Of a stretch of DNA of 64,000 nucleotides, positions 1-51,574 are shown piece by piece. Position numbers and translations under genes: made by a program. Source of the DNA: Saccostrea cucullata (taxonomy: Eukaryota). The stretch spans positions 930,001 to 994,000 of the forward strand of contig NW_026925910.1 in the NCBI RefSeq assembly GCF_032062105.1, written 5' to 3'. The notes below the pieces were generated by a model that saw only the letters and a program-made list of their open reading frames with translations, searched no databases and was not told the origin of the DNA. Each line of letters begins with the position of its first letter. Positions within the stretch are counted from its first letter, which is position 1.

Positions 1-3000
1 TATACTAAGTAAAATACTTTAATACGGCAATATGTACACAGTACATGTATAGAAAATAGTTTAAATTTCTCTGAACTCGTACCATATTTTTAAACGATAC
101 AATATTTTCTATAGATATTCAATTCCCAAAAAGGTAAATTCATTTGTGTTAATATTTCAATGAAATATTAATACGTTTTTATTTTTTGAAATTAAATGAA
201 AATTTACAAGTCACCTTTAGGTAAAAGCTTTAAAAATTGACCTGTTAAAAATTGATTTGAATTTAAGGAAATGCCATGACCACAAACAAATTTTTAGTGG
301 ATGTAGATTTCATATAACGATATTGACAATGTTGAACGGCATATCAATGCTTTCTGGAGGCACCTATCAGTAGGTTTACTAATTGAGTTAAGGTACCGTG
401 GCTGTTGGTTTCTTTTGTGGTGAGTTAGGTAGAGAACTATCATCCAGCGACCCTCGGAATGATAATCTAGCCTTACATCGCACCATAGAACCAAAGGATG
501 TCTACAGGTAGAATATACTTTCATTGTAAGTACAATAATTTCCAGATTTACAAAAAACGACTCCAAAATTCACATTTAATTTTAACTTTTCTAGAATTGA
601 AGTAGCTGACGAGAAATCACTGCTCTTTTATTACTCTTACCTTTGCCTTTTTAGAATCAACAACAGATTTATACAAGAATTCGATGGCAGCAATAACAAC
701 AGATAATGTTAGTCCGCAAGACAGGATATAGAAAATTCCCGCCACATTCTCTAAAGTCAGTTCCGCTTGTGATGCATCCTAATGAAAGGTAATAATTCAA
801 TTGATCATGATCCATGATTATGGCTTCGAAATATACTGATATTTTAAAGTTGTGATTATATCGTTAAAAAAAAGACCTTGTATCATTAATTCAGTCATTC
901 CCGTATAATTCATACAATTACCAAGTCCATAGTATTGAAAAACGAATTTAAGAGCAATGATATAATTTTGTGTTTAATTGATAAAGTAAACATCCTTTGT
1001 TAATAAAATGAAATTTTACACGTAAATCTTTCTTCGTTTTGTTTTTATGGCCATTCCAACTCACCACATGCAAGAACTCCGTAACGGAGGTTATAACTCA
1101 GTAAAAGCAGCTGTAAAGTTATCAAAATCTTTGTTCATGTTTTAATTTTTATTGAAGTTCGAAGCTTTATCAATATACAGCTAAATTATAACAGAAGAAA
1201 TTCTGAACTGCAAACATAAAAAATATTGACTAAATATGTGTAAATCAAGATAACAGAATTTTTGGACAATAAAATAAACACTATTTTCCAGTAGGAATAT
1301 CGTCAAGCAAACAGATTATTACATTACTTGACCACTTGATTTGAAAAATGAAAGGATATATCTTTAGAATGAAAGACCTTTTCTGATTATAAATTGACCA
1401 CTTTTAAAAGAAAAGTTGATATACAAATTGCTCCAAAATTGTAACAGGTTACACAAACTCATTTTGGAGATTAAGAGATAAAAATACTTTGTAAAACGTG
1501 TCAAACACACTTTGAAAATAATGTATTTACACAATTAAGAGTAAAACTAAACTGTTTTCCCCTCTTTTTTAAAGCAATTTACCAAAAAATGTTTCGTTAC
1601 GGAGGTTATTATGAATATTTTTAAAATAAGAGTAAAACGAATTTTAGACTTCCTATCAGCTTTACAAACTTATGTCGCTCAGCATTACTAATTTTTTAAG
1701 GGTCAATCAACTTACTCAAATATTTATTAATATGTTACTGTCTTTTTTAACTGCAAATGTGAAAGTGAAGATTTAAACTTCTATAACCTCCGTTACAAAA
1801 TTCGTTTCGAAGAATCGGTGTGAATGCGTTTACCTAATGGCGAATTTAAATAAGAATAATTGGAAAACATACTTTATTTGTAAAGAAAGGATAAAAATAT
1901 TTGTTTTAACGTTTTTTAGGCAAATACATTTAACCCAAATAATTTTAACCTCCGTTACGAAATACCTTACTGAACCCTGTAATAATGAAGTGATTTATTG
2001 AATCATTGTGAAGTAACTGTCACCATGGTCACACATAAGCATAATTTTTTAAGAAAACTTATTTAATATATCAGAATATGTGAAAAATTCACTAAAAGAC
2101 ACGAAAATTCACTTGTTGCAGGAAACCCAACCTCCGTAACATCGCTGGTTTTTCGTATAAAAGAGTATAATTTCACTGTATACCGCTGATAGTTCACATA
2201 AGGGTGGCCTTTTTGTGCCCATACGCATTACGGACTATTAGACATTTACAAAACGAAAAAGAAACACTATAATTATTATTTGTAATATGCAAAAACATCT
2301 AAGTTAAGGCCATTTTTACCACAACATTTTCAAAAATACCTTTATTTCATGCTTTAAACTCATTATGATTCTTATATTCCATTTTGTTGTCAACTTAAAG
2401 AGTAAACTTCCAGCATTATCTGGTAGATTTAAACAGAAATATTGCACACGTCAGATTTTGTTGATTTTCTGTTACGGAGGTTAGAGGTTACGGAGGTTAG
2501 AACCATCAATAATATCTTTATTTCTGAATTGTTGTTTAACTTTCCTTACATTTGTTTTTTGTTTACTAGACATACCCATTGGTGTCAATCAACTGCCTTG
2601 AAATAGTACTTCACATAGCCTCTGTTTCTTCACAATCACTGTCACGTAGGTTAGGTTCTTATATGCGACATTAAAAAAAATCCGTATTTTTAAAAATTTT
2701 GAACACGGATTTATTAATTTGCTTTAAAAAGGATTCTGTGCTAAAGTTTTAATATATATTAGACACAAAAACACAGATTTAGCTCTACTAACGATATATT
2801 GTATTATCTTAAAAACTATTCAAACACTGTTACGGTAGGTTAGGTGAAATTTGGCGACAGCGATGATCAAGGTCTGTTTAAAAAATTGTTATTCATTTAC
2901 CAATTAAAGTTTCATTTATATGATTTTGACATGTTTCTTCATTAATTAAAACAATTTTTGTTTGTTTAGAACAAAATGCGACCAGGTTATGCACATTTAA

Positions 3001-50767: not shown

Positions 50768-51574
50768 ATGCATTCTTTTTTAGTTATTGTGTGTGCATTT
50801 TTGTTCCAGTCTATGGATTGTACGGAAACAGGGCCATATCAGCACGGCTTTCCTATAGGTAGGTTTAACCAAGTTTAAGAAAGTGATTTTTTTTTCCTGC
50901 AAAATTGAAGAAAATTAAAGTTGAAAAAAATATTAAATTTAACAAGCTTATTTTATTGATGCTTGGATTTAACGAAAGACCCGAGAATGAAATGGAAATA
51001 AATGCTTGACTTGATTTATTTATTTTTTTTTCTTTACGGAAAATATAGAATGTTTTAAATATTCAACTTCTTTGTACCTACTAGTGATAATTATTCAGTA
51101 AGATTTAAAATCTTTTTTTTTTAACTTTACTTATCCAATGATAAAATGAAAGGATAACGATCAGTGATTGATCTTATAAAAACTTCAAGCAATACAATAT
51201 GTGAACACGGACTCCTGGAAATTTAAGAGATGCGATCAGGTGCCTAAGAGGCGTAAGTATCCCCGGATGACCAAACTTGCGTCAGCCCCATGTTTTGATT
51301 TAGATGACGAAGTCAGTTTTAGTACAAAAAACAAAGGTCTAACAATTGATATGAGTCAAAAAACACGAAAAAGTGAAAGTGTTAATATTTGTTAACAATC
51401 CTAGTTACAATATTTCCTCCTCAGGTGCCATATTTGATTGGAGTGATGTATACGCCCGGACTGGATTCCACTACGCCATGAATAAGATACTACAACAGAA
51501 AAAGAACCAATTTAACTTCTCCACAATTATTGAGGACGTCTCCATACACGATAGTTTCCAGCTGATCCAAAAGA
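50768..51574 (+). CDS. Gene D: 5' end (exons 1-2) of a fourth iGluR subunit gene; remainder presumably beyond the right edge
   Basis: Exon 1 50768-50858 MHSFLVIVCAFLFQSMDC...HGFPIG (signal peptide, phase-1 GT donor). Exon 2 51425-51574 GAIFDWSDVYARTGFHYAMNKILQ...IHDSFQLIQK (phase 1-1). These carry the IGAIF...DSF pattern that starts iGluR ATDs, with the same exon phases as A-C. No exon 3 found in the remaining 12.4 kb. Confidence 0.75.

Follow-up and report, generated by a model that had tools for sequence, protein, structure and literature searches.

A candidate Q/R editing substrate within a probably ancient cluster of AMPA-class glutamate receptor genes in the oyster Saccostrea cucullata

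Why do several glutamate receptor genes lie side by side in an oyster genome, how old is their association, and do their products carry different pores? These questions are raised by a stretch of 64,000 nucleotides from Saccostrea cucullata (NCBI RefSeq assembly GCF_032062105.1, contig NW_026925910.1, positions 930,001 to 994,000 of the forward strand; G000:C8047:930001-994000 in our numbering), which is called the window throughout. A sequence-only reading had described in it a four-gene cluster of ionotropic glutamate receptors (iGluR), named A to D, in a mirror arrangement, and had proposed a lineage-specific tandem expansion of non-equivalent subunits that may co-assemble. We fetched the flanks and built gene models by spliced alignment of the window and flanks, using homologous proteins as guides; coordinates below are window positions. 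The four genes were present and a fifth, E, was found 3.3 kb past the end of A, so that the cluster consists of five non-NMDA iGluR genes, with E, A and B in this order on the minus strand followed by C and D on the plus strand. We consider it reasonably probable, on the whole, that this is an ancient cluster of AMPA-class genes in which the pore codon of C is edited by ADAR on an intronic duplex, as in vertebrate GluA2. Gene C is likely a new candidate for an invertebrate substrate of editing at the glutamine/arginine (Q/R) site, set within an ancient AMPA-receptor cluster.

The evidence for editing begins at the pore. At the Q/R site, four of the genes (A, B, C and E) encode Gln in the genome and D encodes Leu (TTA), and the groups of the trees described below were consistent in this residue: Gln in 39 of 39 rows of the AB group, in 14 of 14 of the gastropod AB2 group and in 32 of 32 of the C group, Gln (8/11) or Met (3/11) in the E group, Leu in all 18 rows of the D group, and Leu or Phe in all 15 rows of the G group. 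In C the Q/R codon is CAG at 34124-34126, and the adenosine that would have to be deaminated, A34125, is located 26 nt before the splice donor. Outside the tree from which the pore residues were counted there was one Logan protein of 472 aa, P0124, in which several C exons are joined without introns. It was identical to the Magallana gigas C model P0312 in 471 of 472 positions, and the sole difference was the replacement of Gln by Arg at the Q/R site. Arg was found in one of the 12 transcript-derived Logan oyster C proteins that cover the site (Gln in the other 11). This sample took in no more than 15 members of the full-length cluster, which has 57, and P0124 was the sole member of its own cluster of 10 to enter it. 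Editing of oyster C does not look near-complete in the manner of mammalian GluA2 (about 99%). As separate observations at the same position, the Logan cephalopod-type protein P0181 of the D/G group has Arg where P0196 from Argonauta (774/932 identical) has Gln, a contrast for which editing and a species difference are both possible; Arg-Arg was seen in leech AMPA-class proteins and Arg in an unnamed insect GluR1-like protein (P0160, P0168, P0248, P0373).

If the Arg of P0124 is due to editing, a complementary element is expected in the next intron of C and not in those of A, B, D and E, and this is what was found. An element that resembles an editing-site complementary sequence (ECS) lies in intron 11 of C (Table 1). 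It was predicted to form 33 base pairs with the end of exon 11, with A34125 opposite U34449, a duplex energy of -41.9 kcal/mol and pair probabilities near 1. Of the 81 exon-end/intron pairs compared across the five genes, this duplex ranked first (the others had a mean of -15.9, a standard deviation of 4.3 and a best value of -29.2), its energy was reached by none of 300 intron shuffles, and among 8000 regional windows only the antisense strand of the exon itself surpassed the element. It was also the best among the 12 iGluR pore exons tested in the genome, the next being -33.0. No ECS-like partner was detected for A, B, D, E, the unlinked gene G, five kainate-like genes of contig C8543 and one divergent gene of contig C8135 (best -33.0), two further genes of the latter contig having been missed by the motif used for the scan. 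The two isolated substitutions within the helix are both G-U pairs, the distance from the target A to the pairing U is +324 nt, and 39 nt separate the end of the element from the 3′ splice site. Regarding the enzyme, there were 27 matches to the A_deamin domain in the genome, in a family that includes ADAT and ADAD, and ADAR1 and ADAR2 have been described in C. gigas (PMC6651903). Taking these results together, we regard it as quite likely that ADAR converts the Gln codon of C to Arg, and that it does so partially.

The age of the cluster was addressed with two trees, one of 178 rows by FastTree and one of 57 rows by IQ-TREE under LG+G4 without a mixture model. The 178 rows came from about 255 matches after fragments and near-duplicates were dropped, and the 57 were picked by hand from the 178, leaving the Drosophila, Nautilus and brachiopod genes outside the smaller tree. 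A and B formed an oyster-only pair (100/100) within a group that has one gene in other bivalves and that also holds gastropod (Aplysia GluR3), octopus and chiton genes. A second group was formed by C and E with Aplysia GluR1 and GluR2, octopus and chiton, E being near GluR2, and a third by D and the sixth gene, G, with gastropod and Argonauta members. Cephalopod genes were located at the base of the AB, C/E and D/G groups and chiton genes at the base of AB and C/E as well. Support in the 57-row tree was 100/99 for AB with chiton, 100/99 for C/E, 100/100 for D/G and 96/92 for bivalve plus gastropod D; in the 178-row tree, bivalve C and gastropod C came together with 0.987. With the approximately unbiased (AU) test, a single clade of the oyster genes was rejected (p=1.6e-69) and so was a single clade of all bivalve genes (p=2.4e-6). 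As judged from these sequence trees, the cluster is the result of old tandem duplication and not of an oyster- or bivalve-specific expansion, only the A/B pair being specific to oysters, and the trees place most of the duplications before the split of bivalves and gastropods. That split is more than 500 million years old.

The claim of a lineage-specific tandem expansion therefore held for the tandem duplication itself and for A/B, while an origin within oysters or bivalves did not stand; the phylogeny that had been proposed as its check placed A to D in the AB, C/E and D/G groups, each of which has gastropod members. Likewise, the 17 differences over 114 aa counted between A and B in the S1-M2 exon proved exact, whereas over the whole protein only 464 of 849 aligned residues were identical, which means that the pair is not recent. 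The other gene pairs were about 34-39% identical. The orientations of the mirror layout were right, but its origin by inverted duplication was rejected, since C groups with E and not with B, and D groups with G, located on contig C10522. An oyster- or bivalve-specific expansion with an inverted duplication producing the mirror, for which the oyster-specific A/B pair (100/100), the shared intron phases and the description of protostome AMPA genes as taxon-specific duplicates (PMC5225553) may be adduced, is barely credible, given that the AU tests reject it under LG+G4, so that it survives only as a mollusc- or lophotrochozoan-specific expansion, and that C pairs with E and D with G, the same groups being adjacent in gastropods.

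Linkage in other molluscs was read from sequential gene IDs and scaffold lengths, and not from genome coordinates. Among bivalves, OWF38062/63/64 of Mizuhopecten corresponded to E, AB and C, CAC5425143-4/145/147-8 of M. coruscus to D, C and AB, 010303/010304 of Solemya to AB and E, and 031448/031449 of Sinanodonta to AB and C; AB and C were also together in Pecten, and AB, C and D had adjacent or near-adjacent IDs in three Mytilus species. Gastropods gave comparable series, with AB, C and D at 13494/13496/13497 in the snail Batillaria and D, C, AB and an E-like gene at XP_046373503/504-6/507-9/512 in Haliotis rufescens, while in H. rubra six AMPA genes shared a single scaffold of 3.7 Mb. Gene G, unlinked in the oyster assembly, shares a scaffold with the cluster in Haliotis rubra, and with AB in Lottia and M. 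galloprovincialis. In the public model of C. virginica, B followed by A on one strand are fused into a single protein (P0001, P0265), and the score of P0002 from Tegillarca was high enough to suggest a doubled segment. Bivalves and gastropods are reported to retain ancestral synteny, which is rearranged in coleoids (PMC9068888). We consider it very likely that the linkage is ancient and that the cluster order predates the separation of bivalves and gastropods.

The gene models support the integrity of the locus. A Pfam profile search of the genome located exons of Lig_chan and of the ligand-binding region in three places within the window and at two sites beyond it, 11 kb to the left and 17 kb to the right; all of E, most of D and the last exon of A fall outside. 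The three near-complete genes and the partial one had the positions and orientations given by the sequence-only reading, and D does continue as a full iGluR beyond the window, through an intron of 21.2 kb after exon 2, the remaining 16 exons being located 8.8-19.8 kb to the right. When compared with annotated oyster proteins labelled Saccostrea, the models were identical for B (897/897, P0258), C (935/935, P0260), D (934/934, P0223) and E (909/909, P0201), and that of A was identical in 864 of 867 residues to P0005; B also matched the transcript-derived P0009 in 895 of 897. Exon phases were shared as claimed, with intron positions and phases in agreement at all 13 of the first common positions in E, B, C and D and at 11 of 13 in A. 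The possibility that D is two genes across the 21-kb gap was rejected, because the single 934-aa model fits throughout and other oysters share its N-terminus. An assembly artefact was also discarded, because haplotypes would not differ as much as these genes do and the same set is present in other oysters; there is one haplotig, C9978, with an identity mostly of 95-99%, but what it duplicates is limited to the 3′ part of D.

Table 1. Coordinates of the cluster genes and related features (window positions unless a contig is named)
Feature	Position	Strand	Description
Gene E	entirely outside the window, ~3.6-13.6 kb to the left of base 1	minus	17 exons; spliced model, trees
Gene A	397..13574, ATG 13574	minus	spliced model, trees; AB group, Aplysia GluR3-like; the last exon falls outside the window, 259-330 bases to the left
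A exon 8, amino-terminal domain	7761..7826 (about)	minus	damaged: ~11 codons gone at the 5′ side, C-runs in place of the splice donor
Gene B	16689..25407	minus	complete, 897 aa, 17 exons; Q/R codon CAG at 19421-19419
B/C interval	25408..26017	.	610 bp from the B start codon to that of C; candidate promoter for both genes
Gene C	26018..41346	plus	complete, 935 aa, 17 exons; Aplysia GluR1-like group
3′ end of C exon 11, M2 pore loop	34107..34147	plus	exon arm of the predicted duplex
ECS-like element	34427..34467	plus	within intron 11 of C (34150-34506); occurs once in the genome
Gene D	exons 1-2 in the window, 50768-50858 and 51425-51574	plus	934 aa, 18 exons in total
Gene G, AMPA-class	G000:C10522:185300-208700 (L031-L033)		sixth gene; Leu at the Q/R site

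The damage in exon 8 of A (Table 1) was judged against the intact congener protein P0256. No second copy of this exon was found in the genome assembly, and the damage may be either an assembly error or a real lesion. In E, 14 codons ahead of the annotated start there is an in-frame ATG, from which a signal-peptide-like beginning results that aligns with E of C. virginica, and going by this alignment the annotation of E is probably too short at its N-terminus. Apart from the B/C junction, the gaps between neighbours in the cluster measured 3.1-9.4 kb, and degenerate copies of an inverted repeat were noticed between C and D (42600-45800). From -40 kb to the end of the contig there were 50 open frames of at least 88 aa outside iGluR exons, 46 of which were scanned against Pfam; none of those scanned between E and D was positive, bearing in mind that genes with short exons would escape such a scan, and the five positive frames were all outside the E-D interval. 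In the flanks there were, about 11 kb past E, a Mutator-like transposon that includes an exonuclease frame (L008:1627-5541) and, beyond D, a 574-aa B-box frame and a DDE_1 fragment (L014:5515-7236; L015:5565-6122). Elsewhere in the genome we observed five kainate-like iGluR genes at G000:C8543:55000-135000 (L018-L026), four on the plus strand and one on the minus strand facing them, all with Gln at the Q/R site and with a best intron duplex of -33.0 (gene at 73940), as well as three divergent iGluR genes close together at G000:C8135:570000-620000 (L034-L036), one of them with Leu-Leu-Glu-Gly in the pore loop.

The five genes share the architecture of amino-terminal domain, S1, M1, M2, M3, S2 and M4 together with the SYTANLAAF gate, with one exon of the amino-terminal domain of A damaged. 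In a FastTree analysis of 176 rows by 365 columns all five were grouped with vertebrate GluA, apart from the kainate-type rows, which were unnamed and recognised by motif (support 0.986), and the best 60 PDB matches listed for D and for E were all of GluA type, as were those for the A exon. By these sequence comparisons the five cluster genes are AMPA-class. Considering the residues that bind glutamate, numbered as in PMC6307864 and PMC12226733, A to D keep Arg485, Thr480, Gly653, Thr655, Glu705 and Tyr732. E has Ser at 655 and keeps the other five, and the Tyr450 loop was lost in E and in E of C. virginica, being kept in the other 9 of 11 rows of the E group; Ser655 and the loss of this loop make the ligand response of E uncertain. 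Neurons of Aplysia do not respond to AMPA (PMC5225553). The subunits are, then, non-equivalent as had been proposed, since both the Q/R site and the ligand pocket vary among them.

Another aspect of the cluster is the head-to-head junction of B and C, whose start codons fall within the 1 kb used as the limit for bidirectional-promoter pairs. A spliced B contig in RNA run X3, 96% identical, reached 25784, 233 bases short of the start codon of C, and a contig with exon 2 of C was present in the same run (RNA was compared with 24250-27350). From the identity of 96%, the source of this RNA is probably a related population or species. No TATA box was found in the B/C interval and its CpG level was unremarkable (rank 221 of 634). 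The 610-bp spacing and the extent of the B RNA are consistent with a shared promoter and are no proof of it; that B and C use one divergent promoter seems to us somewhat favoured. Most RNA reads were attracted by a short high-copy repeat at 26946-26982 in intron 1 of C. Logan contigs that hold full-length oyster C reached 6.8-7.0 kb for a reading frame of 2.8 kb (P0123, P0315-P0317, P0325), a length that may reflect either long untranslated regions or the joining of B and C through overlapping 5′ ends.

Putting the parts together, the following course may be proposed. Old tandem duplications would have produced three subunit lineages that were kept linked in bivalves and gastropods, with a later duplication of AB in oysters. 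B and C would be transcribed from one divergent promoter, and in the C pre-mRNA exon 11 would pair with intron 11, where ADAR would deaminate A34125 in part of the transcripts and in some cells, so that Arg would line the pore. If GluA2 is a guide (PMC7045468), mixed tetramers that include the Arg form of C might show less calcium entry and less inward rectification, and the Leu of D would be a fixed pore variant; in a placozoan receptor, residues other than Gln at the Q/R site alter polyamine block (PMC12226733). Heteromers among the members of the cluster are slightly favoured over their absence. The broadest statement, namely that oysters evolved GluA2-style Q/R editing independently, with an ECS at nearly the same distance, in an ordered ancient cluster whose Gln, Gln/Arg and Leu pores mix in one channel and whose B and C share a promoter, is a tentative one, which we hold a little less probable than its contrary.

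Several observations weigh against this reading. With respect to linkage, synteny was derived from the order of IDs and not from coordinates, with strands covered in the oysters only, and RefSeq numbers are not positional in the Saccostrea genome, where E and D are consecutive though they stand at opposite ends of the cluster; for this reason GenBank locus tags carry more weight. The cluster genes are split over several scaffolds in Lottia, C and AB are 38 IDs apart in Patella and 121 in Bulinus, D and E are far from AB/C in Sinanodonta, and in Octopus the AB and C/E genes are on different chromosomes. As to the orthology of C and E between bivalves and gastropods, the AU test (p=0.43) did not tell a separation of the two genes before the split from one after it. 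With respect to editing, Arg appeared in just the one protein of twelve, and this protein comes from Magallana while the ECS comes from Saccostrea, a different genus. A mytilid C locus (L048, the sole locus from a metagenome scan) has CAG and no such duplex in about 790 nt of an incomplete intron (best -29.1). For the complete 386-nt region, the fold has only a moderate advantage over those of its shuffles (z -2.4, 2/100), and the element is absent from the five longest repeat pairs listed in the region. In the available part of PMC9989829, Table S5 has no oyster row among 35 Lig_chan recoding rows, whole C. gigas included; that table is a filtered list, it has no Q to R change of Aplysia or octopus among the same rows either, and it gives the shared GRIA2 Q/R site for zebrafish and human only. 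Finally, three runs of raw reads had almost no B or C reads, with one read pair in X11 (24250-27350).

Among the explanations that differ from ours, the one that survives best accepts the editing of C and supposes that the members act mostly apart, in different cells or as homomers, their linkage being kept by a promoter common to B and C or because genomes of non-cephalopod molluscs rearrange slowly. Amino-terminal domains guide the assembly of iGluRs, and those of the cluster are very divergent (about 24-38% identity in tblastn matches); the linkage, moreover, is broken in coleoids, whose genomes are reported to be rearranged, with ancestral synteny retained in bivalves and gastropods (PMC9068888). 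On the other side, B and C contigs occurred in one RNA run, all five genes keep the gate motif and Arg485/Glu705, and a subunit with Arg or Leu in its pore would make most sense, by the analogy with GluA2, as a modifier of mixed tetramers. We therefore judge this separation of the members unlikely, although it deserves consideration. Less probable still is a tandem array kept passively, in which the Arg of P0124 is a DNA polymorphism or an assembly error and the element either an inverted exon copy that arose by chance or a hairpin that serves splicing. The lone Arg, the recoding table lacking oysters and the part of the mytilid intron lacking an ECS agree with it, the closeness of the element to the 3′ splice site would allow an action on splicing, and tandem iGluR arrays are common in the genome, as on C8543 and C8135. 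It demands, however, two independent coincidences at one codon, where the only substitution among 472 residues falls and where the duplex that ranks first among 81 is formed, and it has to face the fact that both helix substitutions are G-U pairs and that the geometry of the duplex matches the GluA2 substrate. Partial editing of C within an ancient cluster thus remains the reading we prefer.

Editing at the Q/R site is a textbook recoding event and is essential in mice. If the proposal is true, a second origin in a bivalve AMPA subunit, next to a sister in which Leu is fixed, would imply repeated selection on one pore position. The conserved cluster also alters the published view of molluscan AMPA genes as gastropod-specific duplicates, and gives an orthology for the Aplysia GluR1-4 genes that are used in studies of learning. 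The expansion of AMPA genes in lophotrochozoans was already known, with 40 genes in 7 species (PMC6307864) and with GluR1-5 and GluR8 in Aplysia (PMC5225553), and the oyster genes belong to it, AB with Aplysia GluR3, C with GluR1 and E near GluR2. The available parts of these two papers make no mention of linkage or synteny, and PMC5225553 places the AMPA duplications inside gastropods, whereas our trees place most of them earlier. A catalogue of C. gigas (PMC10642201) lists 12 iGluRs with their chromosome positions, among them GRIA1 and GRIA1-like, two genes whose IDs are close, which have 17 exons apiece and which are expressed similarly across tissues; cluster order, the head-to-head pair and editing are not mentioned in the part available. 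We found no report of the oyster cluster order or of molluscan Q/R editing in a search in which 'Q/R' is a poor search term and which left aside subscription papers, bioRxiv supplements and the supplements of cephalopod editing papers, where a molluscan Q/R site may be listed.

With regard to known systems, the neuromuscular GluRIIA-E receptors of Drosophila are similar in that one animal has several divergent iGluR subunits, and they differ in being outside the AMPA class and in having proven mixed tetramers, co-assembly in the oyster being inferred only. GluRIIA/IIB and IID/IIE are also linked. Vertebrate GluK1/GluK2 with their Q/R editing, and squid GRIK (PMC9479739, PMC9068888), represent an independent or partly independent gain of editing at the iGluR pore in the kainate class; in squid GRIK only the Y/C site, and not the Q/R site, is reported as conserved and edited (PMC9068888). 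The closest counterpart is vertebrate GluA2 (GRIA2, edited by ADAR2; PMC3553965, PMC7045468, PMC9479739), with which oyster C shares the AMPA class, a CAG codon about 25 nt before the donor and a complement in the next intron at about +320. In the mouse, the ECS lies in intron 11 at +315 to +324, about 290 nt from the donor (PMC3553965), and the exon target and ECS core of the oyster hardly differ from the ECS sequence that PMC7045468 gives for the mouse, a likeness of the cores that follows from the shared exon target. Unlike GluA2, oyster C is an invertebrate gene of a paralogue group without vertebrate orthologue, its predicted duplex has one G-U pair and a bulge beside the target, and its predicted editing appears partial instead of about 99%, in this respect more like the partial editing of GluK. 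As the sister genes A, B, D and E are without the element, these similarities suggest convergence of oyster C with GluA2.

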